The notes beneath the pieces are model-generated. The model made no database searches, was not told the origin of the DNA, and worked only from the letters and a program-made list of their open reading frames with translations. From an uncultured Alphaproteobacteria bacterium (GTDB lineage: Bacteria; Pseudomonadota; Alphaproteobacteria; Rhizobiales; Xanthobacteraceae): a DNA stretch of 64,000 bases. Both the position numbers and the translations under genes were made by a program. Shown piece by piece: positions 34,044-63,971 of this stretch. The stretch spans positions 71,760 through 135,759 of the forward strand of contig CAWHYZ010000003.1 of the NCBI GenBank assembly GCA_963833605.1. The letters run 5' to 3'. The number at the start of each line of letters is the position of its first letter. Position 1 is the first letter of the stretch.

Positions 34044-34057
34044 TTGACCTTCCTCAA
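34044..34057. promoter_or_regulatory. FixK/FNR-type box TTGACCTTCCTCAA
   Basis: Perfect TTGA-N6-TCAA. The centre lies about 63 nt upstream of the chaB-like ATG at 34114. Confidence 0.7.
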
Positions 34058-34113
34058 ATATGACAGCCGCGGTTGGCGGTATTCTAAGACTAACGACCGA
34101 AGGCATTTTGGCC

Positions 34114-34323
34114 ATGCCCTATGCGACGAATGAAGATCTGCCCATTTCAGTGCGACGACATCTTCCGCCGCATGCGCAGGATATCTACCGCGAGGCGTTC
34201 AATCACGCCTTTTCGGCCTATCCGGCCGAAGAGGAGCGCGCGCATCGCATTGCCTGGTCTGCAGTCAAGCGGTCTTATGTCAAGGTCGGCGCAAGCTGGG
34301 TCGCGCGTGCGACTCACCAGTAA
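34114..34323 (+). CDS. ChaB family protein
   Basis: LP..VR..LP.HAQDIYREAFNHA........EERAHRIAWSAVKR.Y matches the ChaB fold signature. 69 aa. Confidence 0.8.
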   Translation: MPYATNEDLPISVRRHLPPHAQDIYREAFNHAFSAYPAEEERAHRIAWSAVKRSYVKVGASWVARATHQ

Positions 34324-34341
34324 CCAAGGAGAATCGCGATC

Positions 34342-34779
34342 ATGAAAAAATCAACCGCGACTAAGAGCGCGCCGGAGTTGGCAATCTCGCCTGAAAAGTT
34401 GTGCTTCATCATCGTCAAGGCGCATGAGTTCGACGCCAAAGACATCGTCACCGACCCCGACTTGGGCTCCAACGCGGCGGACGATGCAATGCTGTCCGTG
34501 CTTGAGGACCACAAGGACGATCCAGTGGTGTTTGAGCTCAGAGGCTTCATCGGCGCGCTAACCGAGGACGAGCAGATCGACCTGGTCGCCTTGGCTTGGC
34601 TCGGACGCGGCGATGGCTCCCTTGCGGACTGGGAGGAACTGCGTGCTGAAGCGGCGCGGGCCCACAACAAGCGCACTGCGTCCTATCTTCTGGGCATGCC
34701 GCTGCTGGCTGATTACCTGGAGGAGGGGTTGTCTGAGTTCGGGCGGTCTTGCGAAGAGTTCGAAATGGGGCGACTCTGA
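34342..34779 (+). CDS. DUF3775 domain-containing protein
   Basis: ISPEKLCFIIVKAHEFDAKD...LTEDEQIDLVALAWLGRGD...ASYLLGMPLLADYLEEGL. Confidence 0.8.
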   Translation: MKKSTATKSAPELAISPEKLCFIIVKAHEFDAKDIVTDPDLGSNAADDAMLSVLEDHKDDPVVFELRGFIGALTEDEQIDLVALAWLGRGDGSLADWEELRAEAARAHNKRTASYLLGMPLLADYLEEGLSEFGRSCEEFEMGRL

Positions 34780-34809
34780 ACCGCGATCCTGAGTTTGCAA
34801 GCCGGGCGC

Positions 34810-35835
34810 ATGACCAAGGAAGCTCCAGAGCCGAATGTCGCAGCGAGCGTTGGCGCGGGCGGTCGGTTACGCTTGTTCGCGCTTTCGGCAAGCGCCGAGA
34901 TGGGCGAGGCGGTGGCACGAATAATGGGTCAGGCGCTGGCAGCCCATGAAGAGCGGTCATTCGAAGATGGCGAGCACAAGATTCGGCCACTCGACGATGT
35001 CAGCGCCGCGGATGTTTATGTCATCCAGGGACTGCACGGCGGTCCAATCGAGGGCGTGAACGACAAGCTTTGCCGGCTCCTGTTTTTCATCGGCGCCCTC
35101 AAGGATGCGGGCGCCGCTCGCGTCACTGCCGTCGTTCCCTACCTGTGTTACGCGCGCAAGGACCGGCGGACCAAGCCGAACGATCCGGTGACGACACGTT
35201 ACGTCGCCCAGATGTTCGAAGCGGTGGGAACCGGTCAGATCATCTCGCTTGAAGTGCACAATCCGACGGCCTTCGAAAACGCGTTCCGTTGCCGTACGGT
35301 CATGCTCACGGCGACCCCGCTGTTCATCGACTATGTGCGAGGGCTGACGCAGGAGGTGCTTTGCGTCGTCTCACCCGATCCCGGCGGCGCGAAGCGAGCG
35401 GAGCTGTTTCGCGACGCCCTCGAGAGCACTTTGGGTCGCACGGTCGGTAAAGGCTTTGCCGACAAGCATCGCAGTGCCGGCGTTCTGTCCGGTGATCTTT
35501 TCGTCGGTGACGTTGCGGGAGCGACGGCTCTGATCATCGACGATCTGATCAGTACCGGCCACACGCTGCTGCGGGCCGCCGTGGCCGCCCGCCGGGCCGG
35601 CGCCCGCCGGGTGGTGGCGCTCGTTACGCACGGATTGTTCATGGCCGGGGCGGCGGAGGCTATCGCCGACCCCGCCATCGACCGGTTGGTGGTCACCGAT
35701 TCCGTGCCGCCGTTTCGCCTTGCGTCGGAAGTAGCCCGCCGCAAGGTCGACGTGCTGCCCGCGGCGCCGCTTCTGGCCGATGCGATTGGCCGCGTTCACC
35801 ACGGACGGGCGCTGACCGATCTGCTGGTCTTCTAG
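34810..35835 (+). CDS. Ribose-phosphate pyrophosphokinase (Prs) family protein
   Basis: F.DGE..IR......DVYVIQ, VPYL.YARKDRR and IIDDLISTGHT motifs. First ATG at 34810. Confidence 0.8.
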   Translation: MTKEAPEPNVAASVGAGGRLRLFALSASAEMGEAVARIMGQALAAHEERSFEDGEHKIRPLDDVSAADVYVIQGLHGGPIEGVNDKLCRLLFFIGALKDAGAARVTAVVPYLCYARKDRRTKPNDPVTTRYVAQMFEAVGTGQIISLEVHNPTAFENAFRCRTVMLTATPLFIDYVRGLTQEVLCVVSPDPGGAKRAELFRDALESTLGRTVGKGFADKHRSAGVLSGDLFVGDVAGATALIIDDLISTGHTLLRAAVAARRAGARRVVALVTHGLFMAGAAEAIADPAIDRLVVTDSVPPFRLASEVARRKVDVLPAAPLLADAIGRVHHGRALTDLLVF

Positions 35836-35935
35836 ACGAGAACCCGCAAAAGTGGGCAGCGGTTTTGCGTTCGATCGCGCGCCAACACCTTGATTTGCGC
35901 AGGATCTTTTCGGCGAATCGCTCACATTAGCCGGA

Positions 35936-37000
35936 TCATGCACGCATCAAGCGGGCGAGCTTTCTCGCGTCAGCCGCCGCGATTGCGAGATAGCTGCGGG
36001 CGAGCCGCGGCCATTTCGCCGGCGTGCGCGGATTGCCCTCCAGCAGGTGAGCGATGGCGAGGCGCGCCCGCAGGGTCGCGCGATGGCAGCGGTAGAACCA
36101 AAATAACGCCTCGGGCACATGGTCGCGTAGTCCCCGCATCACCCGCCGGCGCAGGTATTCGCCGGCCCAAACGGTGCCAAGCCGTTCGCATTCAAGGTCG
36201 AGGAAGGCGACTTCGTCCAACGGGTCGACCGCGCGCAGCCGGTCGTTGAATTCGAGGCAATCGATGATCCGCACCGGATCCCCCAGCCAGATGTGTTCCG
36301 GGCGCAGATCCCCGTGCCCGTCGACAATCCATCGGCCGCGCACGCGCCGCTCGAGGAGATCGCGACGTTGCGCCAGAAACCGGCGTTGCAGCCCGTCGAG
36401 CTGCATGATCAGGCCTGCCGGCAAGTGGAAGCGCGGGTCGAGCAGAACCCTGCGGTTATAGGCAAGACTCTTCCACCAGTCGGATAGATGGATCTCGGCT
36501 GCAATTGGTGACCTCACGGAGCGCCGGTAGAATTGCACGAGTTTCGCCACTAGGCGGTCGAGCTGCCAGGTTTCGAGGGAACGCTGTCCGAGTGCATGGG
36601 CAAGGGTCTCAGTCTCATCGAGGCGGCGCATGACGACAAGCCAGTCGATGACGGGGCCGGGGCCTCCCAGCGCCAGTCCTACATTCGGACCGGAGCAGGT
36701 TCCGCTTGGCGTGGCGGTCAGCGCCGCTACATCGAGATAGACATCGGGTGCGAGGCGGCGATTGAGCCGGAGCTCGGCTCGACAAGCCGCCTCCCGGCGC
36801 GCCAGCGTGGAGAAATCGAGGTAGGAGAAGCAAACCGGCTTCTTGAGTTTGTAGGCACGCTCACCTGCGAGAAAAACCCACGACATGTGGGTCTCGCGGC
36901 AGGCAACGGTGTCGACCTCAGGCCCATAGGTTGCCGGGCGGCAGAGGAAGGCAACCTTTTGCTCTAGAGTGGTTTGGGCAGGCCTTGACCGATCGGACAC
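35936..37000 (-). CDS. Aminoglycoside-phosphotransferase-fold kinase-like protein. It resembles the N-terminal half of 'bifunctional APH/ATP-binding' proteins of the Rv2004c type (recalled, not searched).
   Basis: Catalytic-loop-like DGHGDLRPEHIW and IDCLEF. An AAGGAG SD at 37012-37007 is followed by GTG codons at 37003 and 37000, so I prefer one of these over the TTG at 37024. Confidence 0.65.
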   Translation of the reverse strand: MSDRSRPAQTTLEQKVAFLCRPATYGPEVDTVACRETHMSWVFLAGERAYKLKKPVCFSYLDFSTLARREAACRAELRLNRRLAPDVYLDVAALTATPSGTCSGPNVGLALGGPGPVIDWLVVMRRLDETETLAHALGQRSLETWQLDRLVAKLVQFYRRSVRSPIAAEIHLSDWWKSLAYNRRVLLDPRFHLPAGLIMQLDGLQRRFLAQRRDLLERRVRGRWIVDGHGDLRPEHIWLGDPVRIIDCLEFNDRLRAVDPLDEVAFLDLECERLGTVWAGEYLRRRVMRGLRDHVPEALFWFYRCHRATLRARLAIAHLLEGNPRTPAKWPRLARSYLAIAAADARKLARLMRA

Positions 37001-37050
37001 CACCAGCTCCTTGCTGATCGGCAAATCTAGCGAGACACTGGCGCGTGCAG

Positions 37051-37097: not shown

Positions 37098-37787
37098 ATG
37101 CCTTTTCGCAATCGTTCGGAAGCGGGACAAAGACTGGCTGCCGCGCTGGCCGAATACCGGCGCGAACACGTGACTGTGCTGGCGCTGCCGCGTGGCGGCG
37201 TCCCGGTCGCTGCCGAAATCGCCCAGGCGCTCGAGGCTCCGCTCGATCTGATCCTGGTCCGCAAGGTGGGAGTGCCATTTCAGCCCGAGCTTGCCATGGG
37301 TGCGGTCGTCGACGGCAGCGAGCCGGTTATTGTCCGCAATCACGACGTGATCGCATTGACCGGTATCAGCGAGGAGGAATTCGAGAGCGTCTGCGAACGT
37401 GAGCTCACCGAAATCGAACGCCGGCGGCAACGCTACCTTGCTGATCGCGAGCGTGCTCCGATCGCCGGACGCGTGGTGATCGTCATCGATGACGGCATCG
37501 CCACGGGCGCGACCATGCGGGCAGCTCTCCAGGCCACCCGACAACGTCAGCCGCGCAAGCTTGTGCTGGCCGTACCGGTCGCGCCCAGCAGCACGCTGAG
37601 AGAGTTACGGGACGAAGCCGACGAAATCATCTGTCTTGAGGATCACGAAAACTTCGGCGCCATTGGCTACTTTTACAGGGATTTTCGGCAAGTGACCGAC
37701 GACGAGGTCATCGAGCTACTCGCGCGCTATCCGGTTCGGCGAGCAAGCGACACCGAGAAGACGCAGCCAAGAGGGGCGGTTTCGTGA
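37098..37787 (+). CDS. Phosphoribosyltransferase family protein
   Basis: MPFRNRSEAGQRLA...VLALPRGGVPVA, IVIDDGIATGATM. The first ATG is at 37098 and AGGA lies 7 nt upstream. Confidence 0.85.
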   Translation: MPFRNRSEAGQRLAAALAEYRREHVTVLALPRGGVPVAAEIAQALEAPLDLILVRKVGVPFQPELAMGAVVDGSEPVIVRNHDVIALTGISEEEFESVCERELTEIERRRQRYLADRERAPIAGRVVIVIDDGIATGATMRAALQATRQRQPRKLVLAVPVAPSSTLRELRDEADEIICLEDHENFGAIGYFYRDFRQVTDDEVIELLARYPVRRASDTEKTQPRGAVS

Positions 37788-37812
37788 TCGGACCCCGTCG
37801 GGGGAGTGGGAG

Positions 37813-38622
37813 ATGTCGTACGTTTCCATAATGGTCTATTGCGACGGGGAGTCGGAACGTATTCGGCTGGCCATCGAGCTTGCCGAACGCTTCAAAGCAC
37901 GCCTGATCGGGGTTGCGGCGCGTGCCCCGATACCGGTGGTGACCGGAGAAGACGCGGCAATTGATGCGGCGCTGCTGCAACAGGAGAACGCCGCCGTGCG
38001 TGCCTTCCTCGACAAGGCGGGCGAGCAGTTTCGCGCTGTAGCGGGGAAATGCGAGACACCGATCGAGTGGCGATCCGCGCCGGACATTCCCAACGATTTC
38101 GTGGCCCGCGAGGCCCGCGCTGCCGATCTGGTGATTGTCGGCCAAACCCCCACCGCGGACCATCGCTCGCTCGCCGTCGGCAGCCTGTTGCTCAAGGCCG
38201 GCCGCCCGGTACTGGTCGCACCGCGCGCACTCGCTTCACTCCCCGCCCGGCACGCTGTCGTGGCGTGGAAGGATACGCGCGAAGCACGCCGTGCCGTGCG
38301 TGATGCCCTTCCGTTCCTGCACAGAACAGAAAACGTGGCGCTCGTCGCGGTTTGCGAATGGGGCGCCGAAGCGACAGCCTTGCGCCAGCTCAAGGATGTC
38401 GCTCGCTTCCTTGCGCAGCATCACATCACCAATGTGACGGAACGCGTGCTGCCCGACGAGCCGGTCGCGGGCGACGTGCTGCTGCGGTTTGTTGGAGATG
38501 AGCGCGCCGATCTCCTGGTCGCTGGAGCCTATGGTCACAGTCGCCTCGGGGAATGGATATTCGGAGGCGTAACGCGAGACTTGCTGACTAAAAGCTCGGT
38601 CTGTTGCCTATTTTCCCATTGA
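37813..38622 (+). CDS. Universal stress protein (tandem USP domains)
   Basis: 269 aa. C-terminal motif ADLLVAGAYGHSRLGEWIFGGVTRDLL. Confidence 0.85.
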   Translation: MSYVSIMVYCDGESERIRLAIELAERFKARLIGVAARAPIPVVTGEDAAIDAALLQQENAAVRAFLDKAGEQFRAVAGKCETPIEWRSAPDIPNDFVAREARAADLVIVGQTPTADHRSLAVGSLLLKAGRPVLVAPRALASLPARHAVVAWKDTREARRAVRDALPFLHRTENVALVAVCEWGAEATALRQLKDVARFLAQHHITNVTERVLPDEPVAGDVLLRFVGDERADLLVAGAYGHSRLGEWIFGGVTRDLLTKSSVCCLFSH

Positions 38623-39132: not shown

Positions 39133-39146
39133 TTGATACGGATCGA
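39133..39146. promoter_or_regulatory. Near-consensus FixK-type box TTGATACGGATCGA
   Basis: One mismatch in the right half-site (TCGA where TCAA is expected). Confidence 0.4.
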
Positions 39147-39309: not shown

Positions 39310-39507
39310 CTAACGTAGAACCGTGAAACCGGTGCCCGCGTGTGTCGACACTGAACTCGCTTTCACAACGATGCGCGGCCCGGAAGCATTGATTGCTGAT
39401 TGGCTTGCAAAAACACTAATCAAAACAACCAAGATCGCCCCCAGCAATGCAACGGCTACGATCTTCACATGCGTTGCCGGATCAGCGGTAAGGACGGACG
39501 TATTCAT
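39310..39507 (-). CDS. Hypothetical small single-pass membrane protein (65 aa)
   Basis: MNTSVL... with TM helix IVAVALLGAILVVLISVFA. A GGGAGA SD precedes ATG 39507 and a terminator lies downstream. Confidence 0.45.
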   Translation of the reverse strand: MNTSVLTADPATHVKIVAVALLGAILVVLISVFASQSAINASGPRIVVKASSVSTHAGTGFTVLR

Positions 39508-39597
39508 GACCCCATCTCCCAAAGTACCCGTATTTTTGTAAACCTCCCACAACGCGTGCGAAATTCAGATAAACCCCCTAAGGGCAATCCCGTAAGC

Positions 39598-39857: not shown

Positions 39858-40544
39858 TCAGTAGCCCCACTGGTGGGGTCGCTTGATCAGGTGCTCATTG
39901 ACGGCGCGGACCCCCGGCATCGATTCGGCCGCGACACGGATGGCCTTTCTTTCCACATCCGAGTTGGAAACTCCCCACAGATCGACCACGCCGTCGATGA
40001 CAGTGACATTCAAGAGATCCGTGTGCGCCCAGCGTTGGCCCTTCAGATGCGCCAGCAACTTGTCGCGAATGGCAACATCGGAGAGTGGGATGTCCAGGGC
40101 CTTACGCTCACTCGCGACAGCCTGAATGAGGTTCGCGCGGCTGACAATTCCAACAAGCTGCCCATCCTTCACGATGGGCACCCGCTTAATCGAATGGGTT
40201 TCCAGCAAGTCCGCGATCTCGTGGAGTGGAGCATCCGGCGTCGCGGTTGTGACTTCAGTGGTCATGACGTCGGATACCTTGCGGGCATGCGCCTTGACAT
40301 AATTGGCGGCAAGCGCCTCGTCCCGTGTCAGTGCGAGCAGCCACCACGAACGTTGCTGCTGGGTACCCGCCTCGGCGCGATGCAGCAGGTCGCCCTCGCT
40401 CACAATGCCGACGAGCTTGCCATGGTCGTCGACCACCGGGACGGCGCTGATCCGTCGATCGAGGAAAAGCTTGGCCACCTCCCTCACAGTCGAGCCGGGC
40501 TTGACGGTGATGACAGGCGAAACCATCACATCGCGGGCTTTCAT
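39858..40544 (-). CDS. CBS-pair + BON domain protein
   Basis: Two CBS motifs (ISAVPVVDDHGKLVGIVSEGDLL, IKRVPIVKDGQLVGIVSRANL) and a C-terminal BON-like segment (VIDGVVDLWGVSNSDVERKAIRVAAESMPGVRAV). A GGGAGA SD is present. Confidence 0.85.
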   Translation of the reverse strand: MKARDVMVSPVITVKPGSTVREVAKLFLDRRISAVPVVDDHGKLVGIVSEGDLLHRAEAGTQQQRSWWLLALTRDEALAANYVKAHARKVSDVMTTEVTTATPDAPLHEIADLLETHSIKRVPIVKDGQLVGIVSRANLIQAVASERKALDIPLSDVAIRDKLLAHLKGQRWAHTDLLNVTVIDGVVDLWGVSNSDVERKAIRVAAESMPGVRAVNEHLIKRPHQWGY

Positions 40545-40583
40545 CGAAATCTCCCTATTCCCCCCCGCAACCAAGCGGCGGGC

Positions 40584-41114
40584 TCACCTTGCGTGGCGCA
40601 GCCAGTAATCTCGCTCCAATGCGGCCATTCGTTCGCGCGTCATGGCGTCTTCACTGGACGACTCCGAAACTTTGCGCAGGCTTTGCATCAGTGCCCGCAG
40701 CAGATCCGAGCGGCTTACAATTCCGACTAGCTGATCGCCCTTAGTGACGGGCAGGCGCTTGATGTCATGCTTCTCCATCTGGCGCAGCACGTCCTCAAGC
40801 GGAGCATCCTCGGACACGCTGATCGGATTTGGAGTCATGACGCTCTCGACCTGTTCGTCAACAAGCCGGCCAAGGCCTTCGCGCCTCTTGTGATTGGTGA
40901 TCAGTTCGAGCCAGCGCGGCCGCGCGCTCTTGGCGCCATTTCGGGTCGGTCGCAGGAAGTCGCGCTCGGTAATGATGCCGACCAGCCGACCAGCCGAATT
41001 CACGACGGGCAATCCGCTGACGCGGCTTTGCAGCATCAAATTGCCCGCTTCCAGAACCGTGGAGTCGGATTTCACCGAAACCACGTTGCGCGTCATTACA
41101 TCGCAAACTCTCAT
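40584..41114 (-). CDS. CBS-pair domain protein
   Basis: VSGLPVVNSAGRLVGIITERDFL and IKRLPVTKGDQLVGIVSRSDLL. Start at ATG 41114 (MRVCDVMTRNV). Confidence 0.85.
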   Translation of the reverse strand: MRVCDVMTRNVVSVKSDSTVLEAGNLMLQSRVSGLPVVNSAGRLVGIITERDFLRPTRNGAKSARPRWLELITNHKRREGLGRLVDEQVESVMTPNPISVSEDAPLEDVLRQMEKHDIKRLPVTKGDQLVGIVSRSDLLRALMQSLRKVSESSSEDAMTRERMAALERDYWLRHAR

Positions 41115-41118
41115 GCCG

Positions 41119-41592
41119 TCATGCCTTGATTGCACCGCGTGCAGCTTGTTGCACAGGAATGATCGCCGCAAGCAGCGTGTTGATGTGCCCGTCACCCCAG
41201 CATGGGAGGACCAGCCGGGCATAGCCAGGCTTAGCCTGATCTGGGCTGAATACGTTTGGGCAATAGCTCGGGCCACGCGTTTCAAGTGCGTCCGTACACT
41301 GCTGCGCAAGCCCCTCGAGAAGTGTCCGCAACCTGAGTTCGTCAAGGAACTTGCCGGCCAGGCCCCCACCGTACTGTTGCTCGATCCACGAGCCCGCGAT
41401 ATCGACGCGAAAACGTACCGGATCGTAGAAAACCTCGATCAGCAGGATATTTTGCTCAACGTCCGACAGTGAGGTAAGCTTGATATCGTCGGAGAACGGA
41501 ATGCTGTTCCCGCCTCGTTTGAGCTTTTGCCAATAATCTTCGACCTGAACGAGATCAGCTTCCATTCGTCCGGCCAGCGCACGACTCATCAT
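41119..41592 (-). CDS. PAS-like domain protein (DUF1457/PAS_5 type)
   Basis: YWQKLKRGGNSIPFSDDI...LLIEV....RFRVDIAGS pattern typical of the small alphaproteobacterial PAS_5 proteins. Confidence 0.6.
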   Translation of the reverse strand: MMSRALAGRMEADLVQVEDYWQKLKRGGNSIPFSDDIKLTSLSDVEQNILLIEVFYDPVRFRVDIAGSWIEQQYGGGLAGKFLDELRLRTLLEGLAQQCTDALETRGPSYCPNVFSPDQAKPGYARLVLPCWGDGHINTLLAAIIPVQQAARGAIKA

Positions 41593-41730: not shown

Positions 41731-42885
41731 ATGTGGGCGCTGCAGCGCTTTGCCCCCGAGCAGCGGCAGCTGTTTCTCCGATTCTGGAAGAGCGCCTCCG
41801 GCTTTTGGCGGGGACGCGCGGCCTGGATCGCGTGGTCTCTTACAATCTCGCTCATTGTCGTCGTGCTGTTGCAACTCTTCATCCAATACGAGTTGAATCT
41901 GTGGAACCGCAACTTTTTCGATGCGCTCGGACGGCGGAGTTCACGCGATCTGTGGCGACAGGTGCTGATGTTCTTTCCGCTGATCGCGTGCAGTGTTGTG
42001 CTCGCTACCGCCTCAGTCTGGGGCCGCATGACCGCGCAGCGGCGGTGGCGGCAATATCTGACTGCGCAGCTGATTTTGTATTGGTTGGCCAGGGGTCGCT
42101 ACCGTCGACTCAACTACTTGCAGCACGGGCGGGAGAACCCGGAATATCGGATCGCTGAGGACGCACGTTTGGCTACAGATTCCCCAATCGATCTGGGCCT
42201 CGGGCTTCTATCCTCATCGCTGATAGCGGTGACGTTCATCGGGGTATTGTGGACCGTGGGAGGCAGCCTCGTCGTCGAGGCGTTCGGAACGACTTTTGCG
42301 CTGCCCGGTTATCTGGTCATTAGCGTCATTATCTATTCGACCGTGATCACCGGCGCGATGATGCTCATCGGGCGCTCGTTGACAATCGTCATTCAGTCCA
42401 AGAACCAGGCCGAGGCCGAGCTGAGGTCGACGGCGAACACGCTGCGTACGAACGCCGAAAGAGCCGCTATCGCGGAGGATGAAGCAGCGGTGCGCCGTGA
42501 GCTCTGGCACGCACTCAAGGGGGCTCTCGCGCGCTGGCGAGACCTGTGCTCGCAACTCGTGCGCACGACCTTGGTGCTGCAGACCAACACCTTGCTGGCG
42601 CCGGTGGTCGGTCTGGTTCTATGCGCCCCGAAATTTCTGTCCGGCGCGATGACGCTGGGCGAACTGACACAGGCGGCGGCCGCGTTCGTGCTGGTGCAGA
42701 GCGCGTTCAACTGGCTCGTCGACAACTATCAGCGGCTGGCAGACTGGGTCTCGTCCGTAAATCGCGTGGCTACGCTCTTGCTTGCTCTTGATGAGCTTTG
42801 CGAGGTTGAAAGACGCACGCCGGCAGCCGGAACCGCGCACGCGGACCAGCGAGCTCAGACGCGTGCCGCCGTCACCTCCGGGTAG
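41731..42885 (+). CDS. SbmA/BacA-like family transporter (transmembrane domain only)
   Basis: FW.SASGFWRG, LNLWNRNFFDAL, ENPEYRIAEDARLATD motifs. 384 aa. Confidence 0.8.
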   Translation: MWALQRFAPEQRQLFLRFWKSASGFWRGRAAWIAWSLTISLIVVVLLQLFIQYELNLWNRNFFDALGRRSSRDLWRQVLMFFPLIACSVVLATASVWGRMTAQRRWRQYLTAQLILYWLARGRYRRLNYLQHGRENPEYRIAEDARLATDSPIDLGLGLLSSSLIAVTFIGVLWTVGGSLVVEAFGTTFALPGYLVISVIIYSTVITGAMMLIGRSLTIVIQSKNQAEAELRSTANTLRTNAERAAIAEDEAAVRRELWHALKGALARWRDLCSQLVRTTLVLQTNTLLAPVVGLVLCAPKFLSGAMTLGELTQAAAAFVLVQSAFNWLVDNYQRLADWVSSVNRVATLLLALDELCEVERRTPAAGTAHADQRAQTRAAVTSG

Positions 42886-43794: not shown

Positions 43795-43819
43795 AGAATC
43801 GTGCTCGATGGTGCCATCG

Positions 43820-47697: not shown

Positions 47698-47829
47698 TAC
47701 CGCCGCTTCCCCATCGCCACTTTCAGGCTATTGAATTTACGTCACAAATCTTTTCAAGCGGCTCGCGCACGTGATCTGCGGCCGATCCGCGGCTCGCGGC
47801 GCAAGCGTGTCGCGCAATCCGTCCGCCAG

Positions 47830-47849
47830 CCTAAGGGAAACCCCTTAGG
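47830..47849. promoter_or_regulatory. Perfect 8-bp inverted repeat CCTAAGGG-AAAC-CCCTTAGG upstream of fixK (candidate operator; function unknown)
   Basis: Seen directly. Its centre is about 70 nt upstream of the fixK ATG at 47910. Confidence 0.35.
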
Positions 47850-47909
47850 GGTGATATCTGAATTTTCTTTCGCATAGCGCCGCTTAGGCTCGCGTCCAGT
47901 CGAATTCAA

Positions 47910-48635: not shown

Positions 48636-48670
48636 CGCGACGTGCAGGTATCGAAGTCGAGGAGGATTTC

Positions 48671-49408: not shown

Positions 49409-49430
49409 CCAAACTTTCATTCATCATTCA

Positions 49431-55785: not shown

Positions 55786-56118
55786 ATGCTTCGTAAATTG
55801 GCTTGCGTTGTCACGCCCATTGCCGCCACGGTCGTGGGTTTCGGCCTCGCGATTTCGACCGCATCCGCCGACCCGGCCAACGGGGAGCGTCTTGCACGCC
55901 AATGGTGCGCCGCGTGCCATGTCGTCGCGCCCGATCAAAAGGGGACAGCCGTCGACGTTCAACCGTTTTCGGCCATCGCGCGGATGCCGGGCTTCAACCG
56001 CGAGAAGGTTGCTTTTTTTCTGCTCGACCCGCATCCCAAGATGCCGAACATGTCGTTGTCGCGGAGCGAGGCCGCCGATCTCGCTGACTACATTGCATCG
56101 CTCGCGACCACCCGCTGA
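55786..56118 (+). CDS. Small mono-haem cytochrome c
   Basis: Signal peptide MLRKLACVVTPIAATVVGFGLAISTASA, CAACH and DPHPKMP. Confidence 0.75.
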   Translation: MLRKLACVVTPIAATVVGFGLAISTASADPANGERLARQWCAACHVVAPDQKGTAVDVQPFSAIARMPGFNREKVAFFLLDPHPKMPNMSLSRSEAADLADYIASLATTR

Positions 56119-56169
56119 ATGGGCGCTGCGTTGATGCGATCCCAGGGTGGTCCGGCTTCAGGAGGACGT

Positions 56170-56472
56170 ATGAAGGTGCATCGTTGGATCGCGCTTGCGG
56201 CATGCGTGTTGCCGTCAACGGTCCTTGCCGCTGACGCCAACAACGGCAGAGATATTGCGCAGCGCCAATGCGCCGCCTGTCACATCGTTATGCCACATCA
56301 ACGCAACGAGGTGGCCGACGCTCCGCCCTTCGACGTGATCGGCAGGAAACGCGGCTTTGATGCTGACGTGCTTGCATACGCTCTGCTCGAACCCCACCCA
56401 AGGATGAACTTTGCGCTGACGCGGCGCGAAGCGGTCGACGTTGCGGCTTATATCAGTACGCTCGCGAAATAG
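56170..56472 (+). CDS. Small mono-haem cytochrome c
   Basis: A GGAGGA SD, signal peptide MKVHRWIALAACVLPSTVLA, CAACH and EPHPRM. Confidence 0.75.
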   Translation: MKVHRWIALAACVLPSTVLAADANNGRDIAQRQCAACHIVMPHQRNEVADAPPFDVIGRKRGFDADVLAYALLEPHPRMNFALTRREAVDVAAYISTLAK

Positions 56473-56538: not shown

Positions 56539-57663
56539 CTACGTCGCCTGGGCAGCAACCGAGCGGAAGCGCCATAGCGCAAGACCGAAGAATAAGCCGC
56601 CGATAACCGCGACCGCGAGGAATTGCGGCCAGACCACGCCGAAGCCGGCTCCCCGATAGAGAATCGATTGTGCAAATGACACGAAGTGGGTCGATGGGGA
56701 CGCCTGCATGATGGTTGCGAGCCAAGGGGGCATGCTTTCGAGCGGCGTATTGCTGCCCGAGAGCAGGTTCATCGGCAAAAAAACCAGCATGAACAGCAAT
56801 CCCAGCTGTGGCATGGAGCGCGCTACGGTGCCGAGAAAAATGCCAATCAACGTCGCAAAGAACAAATAAATCGCCACTCCGATCATGAACAACGGGACCG
56901 ATCCGGCGATGGGAACGCCGAGTACCATTTGAACAACGAGGTAAAGCGATAGCCCAACCGCTATGACGATCACCAGTCCGTTGGCCCAGACCTTGGACAT
57001 GGCGATTTCGAACGGCGTCAGGGGCATCACCAGAAGATGATCCATGGTTCCGTGTTCGCGTTCACGGACAATGGCTGCTCCCGCAAGAATGATCGCCAGC
57101 ATTGTGACATTGTTGATAATGCCCATGACGCTTATGAACCATGCGGTCGTGATGTTTGGGTTGAATGCGATGCGCACGGCGAGATTAACGGGCGGCAGGG
57201 GCAAGCCCTCTGTACGTGATACGAAGTCGTTGATTTCACGCGTGATGATCTGTTGCGCGTAACCGGCACCGATGCCGGCCTGCACCATTGCGGTCGCGTC
57301 GACGTTGACCTGGATAACGGGCTGGCGGCCGCCCAGCACATCGCGCTGAAAGTGGGGGGGAATATCGATCACAAAAGTGTACGTGCCGTTGTTCATCAGG
57401 GGCACGATGTCCCGCTCGGCGATTGCACGCGGTGGCTTGAAGTATGGCGGCAGGAAAGCGTGCGTGATCCGGCGTGAAAGCTCCGAATGATCTTCGTCGA
57501 CAACGGCGATCGAGGCATTGTGCACCTCCTGCGAGCTGCTTTGGGCCTGGCTGATGATGGCCAGCGAGAACGCGTAGATGACGAGTTCCAGCAGCACAAA
57601 GTCGTGCGAGAAGCTGCGCAGCTCCTTGAGGCCGAGCCAGAATATGTTGCTGATCTTCGGCAT
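56539..57663 (-). CDS. ABC-2 type transporter permease (YhhJ-like)
   Basis: 374 aa, with an N-terminal TM helix plus a C-terminal six-helix ABC-2 domain. Follows the RbbA-like gene. Confidence 0.85.
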   Translation of the reverse strand: MPKISNIFWLGLKELRSFSHDFVLLELVIYAFSLAIISQAQSSSQEVHNASIAVVDEDHSELSRRITHAFLPPYFKPPRAIAERDIVPLMNNGTYTFVIDIPPHFQRDVLGGRQPVIQVNVDATAMVQAGIGAGYAQQIITREINDFVSRTEGLPLPPVNLAVRIAFNPNITTAWFISVMGIINNVTMLAIILAGAAIVREREHGTMDHLLVMPLTPFEIAMSKVWANGLVIVIAVGLSLYLVVQMVLGVPIAGSVPLFMIGVAIYLFFATLIGIFLGTVARSMPQLGLLFMLVFLPMNLLSGSNTPLESMPPWLATIMQASPSTHFVSFAQSILYRGAGFGVVWPQFLAVAVIGGLFFGLALWRFRSVAAQAT

Positions 57664-57672
57664 CGGCTGCCC

Positions 57673-60432
57673 CTAACGTTCCTGCTTGCGCAAAAGCAGG
57701 AGACTGATTGTGGTCAAAACCGGAACGAACGTCGCCAACGCGATCAAGTTTGCGCTGAGGTCGCCAAAGCCAAGTCCTTTGGTGAACGTGCCGACGCTGA
57801 TCGGAAGAAAATAGCTCATCGGGAAGCAGCGGCCCATGATTGCTGCGACCCCGGTCAGCGACGACACCGGGATCATCATCCCGGAGAACTGCGTTGCCGG
57901 CAGAACCGTGAGGATGGCGGTGCCGAACAACGCCGCGATCTGGGTTTTGGTGAAAGCCGAGATCAGCATGCCGTAGGCCGTCGTCGCCGTGACGTAGGCC
58001 AGCGCTCCGAGCAGCAACGCCGGGAAGCTTCCCTTGAGGGGCACCCTGAACAGGAACAATGCCATCACGAACATCACGGCAAAGTTAGTCATTGCTACCG
58101 CAATGTAGGGCAGCTGCTTGCCGAGCAGGAATTCGATACGGGTGATTGGCGTGACGTACAGGTTGGTGATCGAGCCCAGCTCTTTTTCCCGCACGATAGC
58201 GAGCGCCATCAAGATCGCCGGGAACAGCGCCAACAGAAGGGCCATGCTGGACGGAACCATGGTGTAGATGCTGACGAAATCCTGGTTGTATTTAAATCGC
58301 ACTTCGATATTGGCCAGGGGCTGCGCGCCCGGGATGGTGGTCTTGACGGCCGGATCCGTCAGATAGAGCTGATGCATTCCCGTGAGATAGCCGCGGATCG
58401 TCTCTGCGCGAAACGGCATTGCGCCATCCACCCAGGCACCAACCCAGACCGGCCGGCCACGCTTGATGTCGCGTCCGAAATTCGGCGGGATTTCAATCGC
58501 CGCCTTGATGTCTCCGCTTGCCAGCCGGTTGTTGAGATCCGCGTAGTCCGCCAGCGGTTTTCTCTCCACAAAATACGTCGATCCTCTGAGCTCTTCCAGA
58601 TAGGCGCGACTCTCAGGACTCTGATCGTAATCCAGGACTGCGAACGACAGATTGTTGACGTCGGTTGAGATGCCGAAACCAAAGACGAGCATCAACAGGG
58701 TTGTTCCGAAAAGGGCGAACCCCAGTCGGATCGGGTCACGTATCAGCTCAAGGGATTCCCGGATCGCCGTGGCGAACAGCCGCCGCATACTGAACCACGA
58801 CGTTGCAAATGCTTGCGGCCCGGCCGGCCGCGGGCTGGCGCCGCCATGCGCTGGCTGACGTGTCTGCGTCAGCACCTCGCTTCCAGGTGCCTGCGTTCCG
58901 GCCGCTTCCTCGAGATAGCTGATGAAGGCAGCTTCGAGGGTCGCGACCCCGCGCGTCCTGATCAGGGCCGCCGGCGTATCGGTTACCAGCACGCGGCCCG
59001 AATCCATGAGCGCGATCCGGTCGCAGCGCTCAGCCTCGTTCATGAAGTGGGTGGAGACGAATATGGTCACGCCTTGATTGCGCGCCAAATCAACCAGCAG
59101 TTCCCAGAATTTGTCGCGCGCCAACGGGTCTACACCGGAGGTCGGCTCGTCGAGAATGAGAATTTCCGGCTCGTGCACGATCGCGACGGCGAGCGAGAGC
59201 CGTTGCCGAATCCCCAACGGCAAATCCAGAGTGGTTTGATCGAGATAGTTCGAAAGACCAAAGCGGTTCACGAGGGCGGCAATGCGGGCTCTGGCCCTGC
59301 CGGCCGGCAGTTGGAAGAGCCGCGCGTGCAGCACAAGGTTCTGGCGCACCGTGAGTTCGGTATAAAGGGAAAACGATTGCGACATGTAGCCGACGCGCTT
59401 GCGTGCCGCGACATCGCGCGCATCGAGCGGCTGCCCGAACAGCAGCGCCTCGCCCGCGCTCGGTGGGAGCAGCCCGGTCAGCATCTTCATGGTGGTGGTC
59501 TTGCCGCAACCATTTGAGCCGACAAAGCCGAAGATTTCCCCTCGCTCGATGGTGAAGCTTACCCGGTCGACTGCGGTAAAATCGCCGAACCGGCAGGTGA
59601 GGTCGCGAGCGGTGATGACCGGCTCGGCGTCGAGGATCGGGCGCGGCGGTATATGCAGAACCTTGTGGCCGGCGCGCTGGTCGTCCGGAAGGGCCGCAAT
59701 GAAGGCATCCTCCACGGTCGATACTTCGGCGCTCTGCTTCAACTCTGCCGGGGTACCAGCCGCGAGCACTTTGCCGGCGTTCATTGCGACCAGCCAATCG
59801 AACCGCTCCGCCTCGTCCATATAGGCGGTCGCCACCACGATGCTCATGCCTTCGCGACGCGCGCGCATGCGGCCGATCAGGTCCCAGAACTGACGTCGCG
59901 ACAGGGGGTCCACGCCGGTCGTGGGCTCATCGAGAATCAAGAGATCGGGATCGTGAATGAGCGAGCAGCACAATCCGAGCTTTTGCCGCATGCCGCCGGA
60001 CAGCTTCTTTACCGGGCGGTCGGCGAAGGGTTTGAGGCCGGTGCTGTCGAGCAATTCCGCGATGCGCCATTCCCGCTCCGGACGTGACTGGCCAAACACG
60101 CGGCCAAAGAATTCAATATTTTCGCGCACGCTCAGGTCGGGATAGAGGTTCTTGCCCAAGCCCTGCGGCATGTAGGCGATGCGCGGACATATCGCCGCTC
60201 GGTGCGCCGCCTGCCTGATGTCGCCACCCAGAACCATAGCGGTGCCGGATTGAATCTGGCGGGCGCCGGCCAGAATGCTCAGCAGCGACGATTTTCCGAC
60301 ACCGTCGGGACCGATCAGCCCCGTCATGTAGCCCGAAGGAAACTCGAGACTGATTGCGTCGAGCGCGAGCGTTGCGCCATAACGCTGCGTGAGGTTGTCG
60401 AGGCGCGCGACCGGGCGCCCCAGCGGAATCAT
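57673..60432 (-). CDS. RbbA-like fused ABC protein (two ATPase domains plus an ABC-2 permease domain)
   Basis: Two Walker A motifs ([18 protein letters not shown]), two LSGG-type signatures and a C-terminal membrane domain. 919 aa. Confidence 0.9.
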
Positions 60433-61553
60433 GCCGGCGCCTTCCCTTGCAGTCGTTCAGGCCAGGCGACCGCCGGGTCGGTGCGGATATAGGCAATTCC
60501 GGGTAGACCGCTTCGCACCGCATCGCCACGCGCACGCAATCGCTCGGGATCAATACGAACTCGGATCCTGAACATCAGCTTGTCGCGCTCGATCTTTGTC
60601 TCGACTGTCTTGGGGGTGAACTGAGCCTGGGTGGCAACGAACGAAACCTTGGCCGGAATCGCGACATTCGGATAGGCATCGAGCACGATGCGAGCATCCG
60701 CTCCGAACTTCACACGACCTGCCTCTGCGGTCGGCAGATAGATGTCCATGTAGACATAGCTAATGTCCAGCATGGAGAAGACCTTGCCGCCGGCGGGAAG
60801 CACCTCGCCGACATTGGCGATGCGGTACTGAATGCGGCCGTCACGGGGTGCGACCAGCGTGTTATCAGCGATGTTGACGGTATAAAGCTCCACTTCGTGT
60901 GTGGCCGCATCAAGCGCATGCTCGGCTTCGATTTCTCGAGCCTGGGCAGCTCGCAGCGCCGCCTTGGCGCCATCCAGCTGCTGCTGCCGCTGGTCCAAGA
61001 CTTCCTTTGTCTGAAAACCCTTCTGCGCGAGGGCGGTGGCGCGGTCGAACTCCTGCTGCGCCAGCAAGACCTGGCTGTTGAGCTGCACGGCATTGGCGTT
61101 AGCTTCTTCGATGGCTTTGTGAGACAACTCGACCTGGGCACGTGCCTTTTTCAGCGACGCCTCGAGATCTCGCGTATCCATCCGCGCGAGCACCTGGCCG
61201 GCTTTGACCATGTCGCCTTGGTCTACGAAAATCTCGGCGATGCGGCCGGCGAACTTGGTCGCAATATCGATTTGATCCGCCTCCAAACGGCCATTGCCCC
61301 AGTAGATGCCGGGCGGCAGCTGCGACTCGGCGCTCTTCCACCAATAGAATCCGCCAGCACCACCTGCGATCACCGCAAGCAGGAGTCCGATGGCGAGCCT
61401 CCATCGCCGGTGGCGGCTGAACTTTGGCCCGAGAGGTGCTGGCAGATTGCCGCTGACCGGCGCCGGGACAGGGGCCGGAGCTTCACCGAACAAATCAGGC
61501 TCGGCGTTCGCAAGCGTCTGTTGCTTCGGTGTTTGATCGGCCTGGCGAGCCAA
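60429..61553 (-). CDS. HlyD-family membrane fusion / secretion protein
   Basis: N-terminal TM helix, long coiled coil, barrel-sandwich motifs. The stop overlaps the start of the RbbA-like gene. Confidence 0.9.
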
Positions 61554-61637: not shown

Positions 61638-61666
61638 TTCGGCGGCGTACGCCGCGGCGATTTGGA

Positions 61667-62062
61667 CTAGCGCTCAAACGCGCGCTGCACGCAGTCGAAC
61701 AGGCGGGTCCCCAGAAACGGCTTCTCGATCACCCAAACGCCGGCCGTCGCGGCGCGCCGACGGATGTTTTCGCTGAGATGGCCGGTTGCGAGGATGACCG
61801 GGATCGAGGCGTGCCGTTCCCGCAATCGGGCCACAAACTCCAGCCCATTCATCGCCGGCATGTTGTAATTGACAATCAGGCAACTTGAGGCCGGCAAGCT
61901 GTCCTCATTGAGCAATTCGCTAGGGTCCGCATAGACCTGCACCAGAAAGCCTTCGGCCTCGAGCGAAAATTTCAGCGAGTTTCGTACTGCGGTATCGTCG
62001 TCGAGGACGAGAATATGCCTAGGCGCCGCCGCAACCTGTTCCATTGAAGCAGAAAACATCAA
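61667..62062 (-). CDS. Single-domain (receiver-only) response regulator downstream of fixJ
   Basis: ILVLDDD...NYNMPAMNGLEF...PVILATGH...EKPF. Possible starts are TTG 62062, ATG 62059 and ATG 62044. Confidence 0.85.
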   Translation of the reverse strand: MMFSASMEQVAAAPRHILVLDDDTAVRNSLKFSLEAEGFLVQVYADPSELLNEDSLPASSCLIVNYNMPAMNGLEFVARLRERHASIPVILATGHLSENIRRRAATAGVWVIEKPFLGTRLFDCVQRAFER

Positions 62063-62082
62063 AGCGCCAGACGTGCTTTGAT
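62050..62082 (-). terminator. Terminator-like hairpin after fixJ, overlapping the next gene's FixK box and start region
   Basis: The minus strand reads ATCAAAGC-ACGTCTGGC-GCTTTGAT followed by GTTTTCTG. The 8-bp stem is modest. Confidence 0.4.
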
Positions 62083-62091
62083 TTCGCTCAA
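62078..62091. promoter_or_regulatory. FixK/FNR-type box TTGATTTCGCTCAA
   Basis: Perfect TTGA-N6-TCAA. The centre lies 40.5 nt from the A of ATG 62044 on the minus strand. Confidence 0.65.
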
Positions 62092-62128
62092 AAACAAGGC
62101 CGAATAAATCTTCGGTGCCGGAGGCCGC

Positions 62129-62731
62129 TCATGGCATCGCCAGCAATGCCATGCGAACCAGGTGGGATAGGCTCTTGGCCTGCATCTTGGTCAGGATGCT
62201 GGCGCGATGGATTTCGAGCGCACGCGGACTGATGCCAAGTTGTTGCGCAATTGCCGAATTCAGCTGTCCGGCCGTGAGGGCTGCCAGAACCTGCTGCTCA
62301 ATCGGGGAGAGTCCCGCCATCCGGTCCCTGACCGCGGTCATTTCTTCTTGGCGCGCGCCTGCGGTGTCGGTCAGCGCCGATCTCACGGCCCCGAGCAGCT
62401 CTTCGTGGTGGTAGGGCTTTTCGATGAAATCCATAGCCCCGGATTTGATCAATTCCACCGCAAGGGAAACGTCGCCCTGGCCGGTCATGATGATCATCGG
62501 CCAGTCGATGTTCTCGTCCCTGAGCCGCCGCAACAGCTCGAGCCCGGTGATCTCGGGCATCCGCACATCGGAAATGATGCAACCGGGCTCGATGCGTGCA
62601 AGCTGACCGAGGAAAGCCACCGCCGACTCATAGGCGCGCACGCGAAATCCGGCAGTGTCGAGCAGGAACGCGAGGGAATCGCGCGCAGCATCGTCGTCGT
62701 CGATCACGTGCACCACCAGCTCACGCGTCAT
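62129..62731 (-). CDS. fixJ: Two-component response regulator FixJ (receiver + LuxR-type HTH)
   Basis: [74 protein letters not shown]. Confidence 0.9.
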
Positions 62732-63971
62732 CGCCGAGCTCCTCGGGAGTGATCGCGCGCAGGGTGAAGCGGAAAACGGTCCCTCCGCCAGGATTGGGTT
62801 GCACCGTCATCAGGCCCCCGTGCGACTCGACGATCGTGCGCGAAATCGAGAGCCCGATTCCCATTCCCTGCCGTTTCGTGGTGACGAACGGCAGGAAAAG
62901 CCGCGGAGCGATCTCCGGCGCGATACCATGGCCGGTGTCGGCGACATCGACCGCGATCATGCCATCACCGGCCGGCGAAGTCACGATCGTCAACTCGCGG
63001 CGGTCGGAGCCTTCCAGTGCCTCGAGCGCATTGCGCAAGAGATTGAGCAAGACCTGTTGAACCTGGATCTTGTCGACCAGCACGAGGTCGATGACCGGGT
63101 CGAGCTCAAAGATGACCCGCACCGATTTCTCCTTGGCGGCGACGAGAGCAAGCGCGCTCGCTTCCTCGATAAGCTTCTTGATGCTTTCGATCCGCCGTTC
63201 GGTTTCGCCGCGCGCGACGAAGTCGCGCAGGCGCTGGATGACGTCGCCGGCTCGCACCGCCTGTTCGGCGGCCTTGTCGAGTGCGTCCAGAACCAGCGTG
63301 GCACGCTTGTCCGGGCTGTCCTGAAGTAGCCGTCGCGATCCCTGCAGATAATTGGCAATCGCCGCCAGCGGCTGGTTGAGCTCGTGTGCAAGCGTCGATG
63401 CCATTTCGCCCATGGTGCTCAGGCGCGACACGTGCAGGAGCTCCGACTGCACTTCGTGCAGGCGGCGCTCGCGCTCGTGCCGCTCGGTGAGATTGCGCAC
63501 AAAGCCGATGAACTGCCGCTTGCCTTCGAGCAGGACCTCGCCGACGAACAGCTCCATCGGAAAGGTACTGCCGTCCTTGCGCTGGCCGACCACTACCCGC
63601 GAGGTGCCGATGATGCGCCGCTCGCCAGTCATAAGGTATCGCTCGAGGTAGCCGTCATGCTCCTGCCGATAAGGCATCGGCATCAGCACGCTGACATTGC
63701 GGCCCTGAATTTCCCCGGCCGTGAAACCGAACAGCCGCTCCGCCGTGGCGCTGAACGACTGGACGAGTCCGCCCTCGTCGATGATGACCATTGCATCGGG
63801 CACGGTCTCGAGGATCGAACGGAGGTGCGCTTCGCGGCTGTTCACCTCCGCGACCAGGTCGCGGACGACGTCGAGCGCTTGCTGCGCGAGATCGCCGGTG
63901 CGGGAAGATCCCAGCTTTTCGTGCCCGGTACGTTCCGTTGCCGGATTATGGTAACGGTTTGCGGTCACCAT
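62721..63971 (-). CDS. fixL: Oxygen-sensor histidine kinase FixL (one haem-PAS domain + HisKA + HATPase)
   Basis: Haem-PAS signature [26 protein letters not shown]...[14 protein letters not shown]-box [13 protein letters not shown], and N/G boxes. An in-frame stop lies 5 codons upstream of ATG 63971, so the protein is 416 aa. Confidence 0.9.

Follow-up and report, generated by a model that had tools for sequence, protein, structure and literature searches.

A probable chromosomal FixLJ-FixK low-oxygen regulon cluster in an uncultured member of the Xanthobacteraceae

In Bradyrhizobium diazoefficiens, the FixLJ-FixK2-FixK1 cascade combines a fixK promoter that carries a FixJ site with target promoters that carry TTGA-N6-TCAA boxes. 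The same cascade logic appears in a 64-kb stretch of DNA (the window) from an uncultured soil member of the Xanthobacteraceae, a family that in the GTDB sense takes in Bradyrhizobium relatives. Here we describe a box-rich block at ~34 to 64 kb of this window which, judged from its sequence, is probably a chromosomal FixLJ-FixK low-oxygen regulon cluster. The B. diazoefficiens FixK2 regulon data used for comparison are those of Mesa et al. 2008 as reproduced in later papers. In the parts reproduced there, covering the clusters bll2757-blr2770, bll4644-blr4659, blr6059-blr6074 and bll7986-bll7993, the target families in common with our block are phaC2, CBS, HlyD-ABC, universal stress protein (USP), MCE/Mla, PfkB-like kinase and cytochrome c. 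The same excerpts give phaC2 (bll6073) a FixK2 box common to a divergent CBS gene, describe the HlyD-ABC operon bll7988-7986, which is homologous to the window operon, as FixK2-dependent and box-associated, and list five boxes for the eight genes of bll7986-bll7993. They name as microoxia-induced USPs, CBS proteins, the MCE protein bll6063, Mla/ABC components, a PfkB-family kinase, a GNAT acetyltransferase and the receiver bll2758, which adjoins fixJ just as the window receiver does; USP, MCE and bll2758 also count among the genes there that depend on FixK2 and are associated with boxes.

A sequence-only reading of this DNA had singled out the dense packing of targets as unusual. The B. diazoefficiens clusters, FixK2-dependent, box-associated and made up of the same families, contradict this, as does a Bradyrhizobium plasmid with seven boxes in 40 kb, discussed below. 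The two systems nevertheless differ. Regulators and targets form one 28-kb run here rather than several clusters, FixL has one PAS domain instead of two, and FixK is ~50% identical to FixK2, with Gly in place of the oxidation-sensitive Cys183. The block also lacks the fixNOQP/fixGHIS oxidase genes of the B. diazoefficiens system; the "respiration genes" of the earlier reading come down to three small c-type cytochromes, with no terminal oxidase in the block.

The predicted core FixK regulon of the Bradyrhizobiaceae contains FixL, FixJ, HlyD, an ABC permease/ATPase, CBS, class I cytochrome c, a kinase, Hsp20, phosphoketolase, Zn-alcohol dehydrogenase and hypotheticals (Dufour, Kiley and Donohue 2010, PMC2908626). 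Nearly the whole of this set is present in the window, without Hsp20, phosphoketolase and Zn-alcohol dehydrogenase, and Hsp20 is present in two related islands (L082 and L084, below). That work (PMC2908626) predicted membership across genomes and did not describe physical clustering. The reactive cysteine that it reports as conserved in Nitrobacter, Bradyrhizobium and Rhodopseudomonas FixK is absent from the window FixK.

To map the block we used GC3-supported open reading frames (ORFs) scanned with Pfam and NCBIfam, and refined start codons by ribosome-binding sites and by the point where similarity to orthologues begins; boxes were counted on both strands. Eighty comparison loci were fetched. 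A search of species-representative contigs with FixK returned L001-L005, from Xanthobacteraceae metagenome-assembled genomes (MAGs) with FixK proteins 67-78% identical to ours, or 75-78% in the closest genomes, and more distant Caulobacterales, Parvibaculum, Rhizomicrobium, Afipia and Rhodopseudomonas loci. L082 and L084 were added through homologues of the 355-aa protein of the block; L084 and L003 are overlapping parts of one 250-kb contig.

The perfect box TTGA-N6-TCAA occurs seven times in the window, where dinucleotide shuffles predict 0.59. None of 100 shuffles of the whole window reached seven boxes (maximum 3). All seven lie within 34.0-62.1 kb and none in the first 34 kb; the left 31 kb, a housekeeping region (hydantoinase, prfA, prmC, phaR-phaA-phaB, gloB and a solute-binding protein), is free of boxes. 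With refined gene starts, intergenic DNA accounts for 3002 nt, or 9.2%, of 31.2-64 kb and has 56% G+C. It holds six perfect boxes where 0.05 are expected (maximum 2 in 5000 shuffles); the coding part of this region, 29.8 kb long, has one. The relaxed motif TTG[AC]-N6-[TG]CAA matches 14 times, with 3.9 expected. All nine boxes of the sequence-only reading are real and intergenic, namely the six perfect palindromes (34044, 37051, 41646, 46501, 52390 and 62078) and three relaxed sites (39133, 55633 and 61624), but its list was incomplete, since it overlooked a perfect copy in coding DNA at 53032 and a one-mismatch copy at 49842 (Table 1).

These counts bear on whether the palindromes might play no part in regulation and have arisen by chance or through the spread of a repeat. 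The copy at 53032, situated within a gene and not conserved, would fit such an account, as would the one-mismatch sites, which are not rare singly (15 in all in 31-64 kb). However, none of the 5000 shuffles reached six intergenic copies, and the boxes are retained at orthologous promoters amid diverging intergenic DNA. Because the N6 spacers and the flanks differ from box to box, the boxes are not copies of one repeat. Enrichment, shuffles and orthologous-promoter conservation together effectively refute this account, and we give it next to no weight.

Each of the ten promoter boxes is matched at the orthologous promoter in at least one of L002-L005, L082 and L084, where the proteins are 52-82% identical, and these boxes persist while the neighbouring intergenic DNA diverges. 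The chaB box is found 63.5 nt from the start in L082, 58.5 nt in L084 and 95.5 nt in L005; in the window this box also lies 141.5 nt from the Pat-like gene on its other side. The box between the APH-like gene and the phosphoribosyltransferase (PRTase) gene is kept in both L082 and L084, its centre lying 39.5-41.5 nt from the start of the PRTase gene. The 74-aa gene, behind a one-mismatch box in the window, has an orthologue in L084 with a perfect box (TTGACCAAGGTCAA) at 65.5 nt, and the P-type ATPase promoter, likewise a one-mismatch case, has a perfect box in L004 (TTGATCTTACTCAA) 41.5 nt from the orthologous start. The box at 41646 is perfect in L003/L084 and reads TTGCGCCACGTCAA in L002, and that between the GH4 and MlaD genes recurs in L002 and L003 at 61.5 and 72.5 nt. 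The hydrolase box is identical in L004, at 42.5 nt, and reads TTGATCTAGCGCAA in L005, at 41.5 nt. For the one-mismatch phaC box, which lies 146.5 nt from the divergent pair of cytochrome c genes, the L004 phaC/cytochrome c spacer has a perfect box (TTGATCCTGATCAA). The relaxed hlyD box is matched in L084 by TTGACCTGGCGCAA at 75.5 nt, with the GCAA half-site in common, and boxes also stand upstream of the orthologous receiver gene in L084. Jointly, L084 and L003 contain 12 distinct perfect boxes in 35 kb, so the dense cluster is a feature of the lineage. Throughout 34-62 kb of the window, every transcription unit has a FixK-type box or a FixJ-type module, if the distant box of the cytochrome c pair is counted.

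The candidate regulator of these boxes is FixK, a protein with the Pfam families cNMP_binding, HTH_Crp_2 and Crp. Its best solved relative is FixK2 of B. japonicum bound to its box (PDB 4I2O, 9.6e-60), and its recognition helix, DYLGLTIETVSRTL, aligns with the nearly identical DYLGLTLETVSRAL of that structure; both are of the E..SR type. FixK has no cysteine in its 237 residues. The segment LPMGRQDIADY corresponds to LPMSRRDIGDY in the C183S crystal form of FixK2, placing Gly at the Cys183 position, so that FixK would belong neither to the Fe-S FNR type nor to the Cys183-regulated FixK2 type. The exact protein, in the same gene order, also occurs on a Logan metagenome contig. No FixK box within one mismatch was found upstream of fixK itself in the window, whereas L002 and L003 have one at ~-140 from fixK; an autoregulation site, if there is any, is thus not conserved.

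The fixK promoter in turn is a candidate FixJ target. When the sequences that precede fixK in the window and in L001-L005 were aligned, they proved to share a near-invariant CCTA(A/C)GGG-N5-CCTTAGGG-N5-ATCTGAATTT ~60-90 nt before the start codon, and the module is nearly invariant in seven genomes (L001-L006 and the Caulobacter locus L019). Within it, a TAAGGG-N5-CCTTA element lies ~80 nt upstream of the fixK ATG, and its half-sites and their spacing match the B. japonicum fixK2 oligonucleotide that binds phospho-FixJ (TTAAGGGGGGTGCCTTACG). A second copy of the module, independently detected by a repeat finder as an inverted repeat (I2), lies ~60 nt upstream of an ORF for a 65-aa membrane protein, which had no Pfam family match. 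In L004, the orthologous small ORF (57% identity) stands behind the same module, immediately upstream of fixK. The module copy makes the 65-aa ORF a candidate direct FixJ target.

FixL, FixJ, the receiver-only protein and FixK are encoded where the sequence-only reading had placed them, except that fixK has a central position in the block and is not one of its flanks. FixL scores 547 bits with the NCBIfam FixL model over model positions 111-481 and stays below the cut-off of 850 since it has no counterpart to the first ~110 positions of the model. Its PAS domain matches solved FixL heme-domain structures (1D06, 1DP6) at ~1e-43 to 1e-33, and the protein contains the segment EHDGYLERY...RKDGSTFPM, so FixL appears to combine the heme-PAS, HisKA and HATPase domains of a FixL-type sensor kinase. 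FixJ exceeds its NCBIfam equivalog cut-off (262.9 bits, cut-off 255); its gene adjoins fixL, with an 11-nt overlap at the fixL stop. The receiver-only protein resembles the receiver domain of FixJ, but has CLIVNYNMP where FixJ has CIISDVRMP, so that Asn replaces the phospho-accepting Asp. This Asn is kept in the 79%-identical L084 orthologue, whereas nearly all other receiver homologues among the 80 loci retain Asp; that of L055 has Ser. A single-domain receiver beside fixLJ with a FixK box ahead of its gene is the arrangement of FixT, and the same layout is seen in many of the 80 loci. FixT of Caulobacter uses four cysteines to bind an Fe-S cluster; the window protein has two cysteines.

The Caulobacter-type module, with fixL, fixJ, single-domain receiver and fixK, recurs in the fetched Caulobacterales loci. 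L019 has the same FixJ-box-like element upstream of its fixK, and L025 and L055 have FixK boxes 41.5-42.5 nt from the receiver ATG. The window proteins differ from this type in falling under the equivalog cut-offs, both for FixK (213 bits vs 300) and for the NCBIfam FixT family (41 bits vs 150).

In agreement with the earlier range of 35-85 nt, box centres lie 40.5-78.5 nt from the closest start codon that was confirmed. Three boxes (37051, 41646 and 46501) stand between divergent genes at distances that suit both sides, as the sequence-only reading had also noted of three boxes. Sites of class II Crp/Fnr activators are centred at -41.5 relative to the transcription start. Hexamers resembling a -10 element (TATTCT, TAGATT, TAGGAT, TTTAAT, TATACG) begin ~21 nt past the box, the spacing expected if the box is centred at -41.5. 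On the same assumption, the ATGs at 37098, 49890, 52438 and 62044, which lie 40.5-41.5 nt from a box centre, would coincide with the predicted +1, and the remaining genes would have leaders of 13-37 nt with ribosome-binding sites. That four of the 13 box-gene pairs fall in one 2-nt bin has a chance of ~5e-4, and the 40.5-41.5-nt spacing is kept in L004, L005, L082 and L084. An ATG at the predicted start site implies that these mRNAs could be leaderless. Over the 80 loci, distances from perfect boxes to ORF-opening ATGs peak chiefly at 60-63 nt, and a lesser peak at 41.5-42.5 nt takes in FixT-like receivers, a hemN-like gene and a Pat-like gene. Leaderless mRNAs have been described as common in B. 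japonicum, with 192 transcription starts exactly at start codons, and no link to FixK was made there.

Several points weigh against the reading of the block as a FixLJ-FixK regulon. The promoter of fixLJ lies outside the window. FixK lacks the Cys183 of FixK2 and misses the cut-off of the NCBIfam Caulobacter-FixK equivalog, although this is its best NCBIfam family. One of the perfect boxes, that at 53032, is in coding DNA and is not conserved; it is probably non-functional, and we rejected it as an internal promoter for these reasons. One-mismatch sites in intergenic DNA number four where 0.97 are expected, and 18 of 1000 shuffles reach four; because this enrichment is modest by itself, the relaxed sites need other support. 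Finally, TTGA-N6-TCAA is the common consensus of proteins of the FNR, FixK and Dnr types (PMC2908626), and for this reason the boxes alone do not identify the local FixK as the protein that binds them.

The last point raises the question of whether these real Crp/Fnr-family boxes might be served mainly by a paralogue encoded elsewhere, of the Fe-S FNR/AadR type or the NnrR/Dnr type, with the local FixK a minor or just one input. FNR, FixK and DNR recognise very similar targets and their overlapping regulons are documented (PMC2908626), and B. diazoefficiens has several FixK2-activated CRP/FNR paralogues. However, fixK is central in the box cluster, and fixK, fixLJ and the FixJ-type fixK promoter are co-located in related MAGs and in Caulobacterales. 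The near-identity of its recognition helix to that of FixK2 solved on its box also favours the local protein, and for the Bradyrhizobiaceae a reduced FNR regulon and an expanded FixK regulon have been predicted (PMC2908626). We therefore consider it unlikely that a paralogue is the main regulator. The reading in which FixLJ acts through FixK on the FixK boxes is supported at each sequence-level test available.

From these observations we infer the following scheme. At low oxygen, the heme-PAS kinase FixL would phosphorylate FixJ, and FixJ~P would bind TAAGGG-N5-CCTTA and activate two near-identical promoters, one for fixK with the CBS/BON and cytochrome c genes and one for the 65-aa membrane protein. 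FixK, predicted to lack both an Fe-S cluster and a redox switch of the Cys183 type, would then act as a class II activator that binds TTGA-N6-TCAA centred ~41.5 bp ahead of the transcription start. The ten promoter boxes would drive ~13 transcription units, and three of these boxes would act in both directions. The products would include stress proteins (USP, CBS, BON), storage and sugar functions (polyhydroxyalkanoate (PHA) synthase, the depolymerase-like hydrolase and the glycosidase/PfkB sugar operon) and transporters (SbmA-like, MlaD, the P1B-5 ATPase with hemerythrin domain, HlyD-ABC), together with the phosphoribosyl pyrophosphate (PRPP) synthetase-like protein, the PRTase, the APH-like kinase and c-type cytochromes. 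Four promoters, with the ATG exactly at the predicted start, would give leaderless mRNAs. The FixT-like Asn receiver, predicted to be a non-phosphorylatable FixK target, probably feeds back on FixL.

The compactness of the block could also have arisen in a different way, by recent transfer of a horizontally acquired mobile island and not by selection for co-regulation. A case in point is the conjugative plasmid pBs162S2a of Bradyrhizobium septentrionale (NZ_CP088289.1, L085, 319929-360522), which carries a very similar gene set. It has seven perfect boxes in 40 kb, with 0.56 expected, six of them in ~20 kb upstream of a gene for a FixK-like protein 56% identical to ours, and USP, CBS, cytochrome c and SbmA/BacA-like genes and two receivers lie alongside. 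Its sensor is annotated as a CHASE3-domain protein, in contrast to the heme-PAS FixL of the window. Genes for phosphoketolase, acetate kinase and DnaJ/CbpM are further members of this plasmid island, which is flanked by IS66 elements, an integrase and a group II intron. Gene order within the island is also shuffled between related MAGs. In our window, by contrast, there is no tRNA gene, integrase and transposase domains are absent among the Pfam-scanned ORFs, G+C is uniform at 0.58-0.68 across the 34-kb boundary, and the left flank consists of core housekeeping genes including prfA, prmC and phaRAB. Recent transfer is thus quite improbable as the source of the compactness, and the mobile-island and regulatory readings are in any case compatible.

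Some further features lie in and around the block. The phaR, phaA (thiolase) and phaB (acetoacetyl-CoA reductase) genes, at 17704-20506, are 14-16 kb left of the block and have no FixK box, in contrast to phaC and the depolymerase-like hydrolase inside it, each of which has one. The 355-aa protein is one of at least 8000 members of a family that JGI names "aminoglycoside phosphotransferase (APH) family enzyme" and has a kinase-like motif, HGDLRPEHI...IIDCLEF; its gene is always divergent from the PRTase gene in relatives. Searches of PDB sequences with the 355-aa and 157-aa proteins gave nothing usable, and permissive Pfam scans of the unknown proteins returned sub-threshold matches only. The combination of a P1B-5 ATPase with a hemerythrin domain is known as a class of its own, to which Nia of S. 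meliloti belongs (PMC9388753). P1B-5 ATPases are also among the target families by which the block matches experimental and predicted FixK regulons of the Bradyrhizobiaceae. The Pat-like gene changes frame near 33340, at CTCGAACGTCGATTTTGG, where two frames overlap; in a by-eye reconstruction, removal of one base there would restore a continuous QLDVDFGDLLDYF frame, which indicates a one-base insertion, either a pseudogene or an assembly error. A 40-nt element (CGCAAAACCG...CCCACTTTTGCGGG) occurs at 35830-35869 and, in inverted orientation and with 80% identity, at 53646-53685, just past the stop codons of the PRPP-synthetase-like and hydrolase genes; it could be a dispersed repeat that resembles a terminator. 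A long near-perfect hairpin at 38647-38733 (CTAGTGTGGCGGATTTGACGTTCCTAC ... GTAGGAACGTCAAATCCAAAGCCACACTAG), in the spacer that follows the USP gene, matches no Rfam family, and no Rfam family reached its gathering threshold.

Table 1 Genes, promoter boxes and FixJ-type modules of the block (window coordinates; distances are from box centre to start codon)
Feature	Position	Strand	Basis or remark
Pat-like ADP-forming acyl-CoA synthetase/GNAT gene, split in two frames	31213-33922	-	Pfam/NCBIfam
Perfect box TTGACCTTCCTCAA	34044..34057	.	63.5 nt from chaB ATG 34114; TATTCT at -10 position
ChaB, DUF3775 protein, PRPP-synthetase-like protein; probable operon	34114..35835	+	Pfam, NCBIfam
355-aa protein (APH-like)	35936..37003	-	no Pfam family; JGI names on homologues
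Perfect box TTGACGCCGATCAA	37051..37064	.	divergent: APH-like gene 54.5 nt, PRTase 40.5 nt (leaderless geometry)
PRTase and tandem-domain USP	37098..38622	+	Pfam
74-aa unknown gene	39067 to 38843	-	
One-mismatch box TTGATACGGATCGA	39133..39146	.	72.5 nt before 74-aa gene
65-aa single-pass membrane protein	39310..39507	-	translation; 57%-identical full-length L004 orthologue
Second fixK-type module: FixJ-box-like TACGGGATTGCCCTTA, then ATCTGAATTT	39561..39597	-	inverted repeat
157-aa unknown protein (unk157), CBS-pair protein (start 41114), CBS-BON protein; probable operon	39858..41592	-	Pfam; starts refined against L084
Perfect box TTGACGTGCCTCAA	41646..41659	.	divergent: unk157 operon 60.5 nt, SbmA/BacA-like gene 78.5 nt
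SbmA/BacA-like transporter	41731..42885	+	Pfam
GH4 glycosidase, GH1 beta-glucosidase, PfkB sugar kinase; probable operon	42619..46447	-	Pfam
Perfect box TTGATCCGTGTCAA	46501..46514	.	divergent: GH4 60.5 nt, MlaD 68.5 nt
MlaD/MCE protein fused to ABC-auxiliary lipoprotein domain	46576..47697	+	Pfam
fixK promoter module: FixJ-box-like TAAGGGAAACCCCTTA, then ATCTGAATTT	47829..47865	+	
fixK (237 aa, start 47922), CBS-BON protein, small cytochrome c; probable operon	47922..49763	+	Pfam
One-mismatch box TTGATCTTACGCAA	49842..49855	.	41.5 nt from P-type ATPase ATG 49890
P1B-type heavy-metal ATPase, C-terminal hemerythrin domain (P1B-5 type)	49890..52205	+	Pfam E1-E2_ATPase, Hydrolase, Hemerythrin; NCBIfam ATPase-IB_hvy
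Perfect box TTGAGCTAGCTCAA	52390..52403	.	41.5 nt from hydrolase ATG (leaderless geometry)
Alpha/beta hydrolase resembling polyhydroxybutyrate (PHB) depolymerase	52438..53562	+	Pfam DUF3141, Abhydrolase_1, PHB_depo_C
Perfect box in hydrolase coding sequence	53032..53045	.	without counterpart in L004/L005 orthologous genes
phaC, PHA synthase	53749..55572	-	Pfam PhaC_N, PHBC_N, Abhydrolase_1; start from L004 homology onset
One-mismatch box ATGATCTAGGTCAA	55633..55646	.	67.5 nt before phaC ATG 55572
Two tandem small c-type cytochromes	55786..56472	+	Pfam Cytochrom_C, Cytochrome_CBB3; signal-peptide-like N-termini in translations
HlyD adaptor, fused double-ATPase/permease ABC protein, ABC-2 permease; probable operon	56539..61553	-	Pfam
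Relaxed box TTGCGCGAAATCAA	61624..61637	.	77.5 nt before hlyD start
Receiver-only (FixT-like) protein	61667..62044	-	Pfam Response_reg only
Perfect box TTGATTTCGCTCAA between fixJ and receiver-only gene	62078..62091	.	40.5 nt from ATG 62044
fixJ, receiver (REC) + LuxR/GerE helix-turn-helix response regulator	62129..62731	-	Pfam Response_reg, GerE
fixL, 416-aa sensor kinase: one heme-type PAS, HisKA, HATPase	62721..63971	-	Pfam PAS, HisKA, HATPase_c

A bolder reading would take the block as a self-contained hypoxia/dormancy cassette of ~28 kb, DosR-like and mobile, with all of its units wired to FixJ or FixK, about a third of its FixK promoters leaderless and feedback from the Asn pseudo-receiver. 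The functional analogue is the DosRST system of M. tuberculosis, in which a heme-sensor kinase and a LuxR-type regulator respond to hypoxia and induce tandem USPs, CBS-pair, PfkB, P-type ATPase, phosphoribosyltransferase-domain and APH-like proteins and a storage-polymer synthase, all of which have like genes in the window. DosRST differs in its unrelated motif and phylum, in having no intermediate Crp/Fnr regulator and in storing triacylglycerol instead of PHA, so the resemblance is one of gene content only. Related islands (L084, contig_50998 63070-84110, and L082) add NadE, a ribosome hibernation factor (S30AE), Hsp20, GroEL and ClpP, and a nicotinamidase-like isochorismatase and a nicotinate phosphoribosyltransferase (NAPRTase) are found in L082; these additional genes suggest functions in NAD salvage and dormancy and are reminiscent of the DosR regulon of mycobacteria. 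The presence of similar cassettes on conjugative plasmids suggests that such a cassette can move between genomes. Taken as a whole, such a cassette is possible but doubtful.

The FixLJ-FixK regulon cluster described here is a further example of a well-known low-oxygen regulon and leaves the picture of low-oxygen regulation in the Alphaproteobacteria unchanged. Four points, as predicted from sequence, are modestly new: a conserved geometry that implies leaderless mRNAs, a second copy of the FixJ-type promoter on a small membrane-protein gene, a pseudo-receiver with Asn and a FixK without cysteines. To our knowledge, an ATG at +1, duplication of a FixJ promoter onto a small membrane protein and an Asn receiver in the FixT position have not been described for FixK regulons. 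For this uncultured lineage, the analysis provides a comparatively validated map of a FixLJ-FixK regulon core, with ten boxes, two FixJ-type promoters and ~13 units, which could guide annotation of the APH-like, 157-aa, 74-aa and 65-aa proteins, ChaB and DUF3775. It also shows that the FixK targets known from the Bradyrhizobium group stay physically linked to one another.

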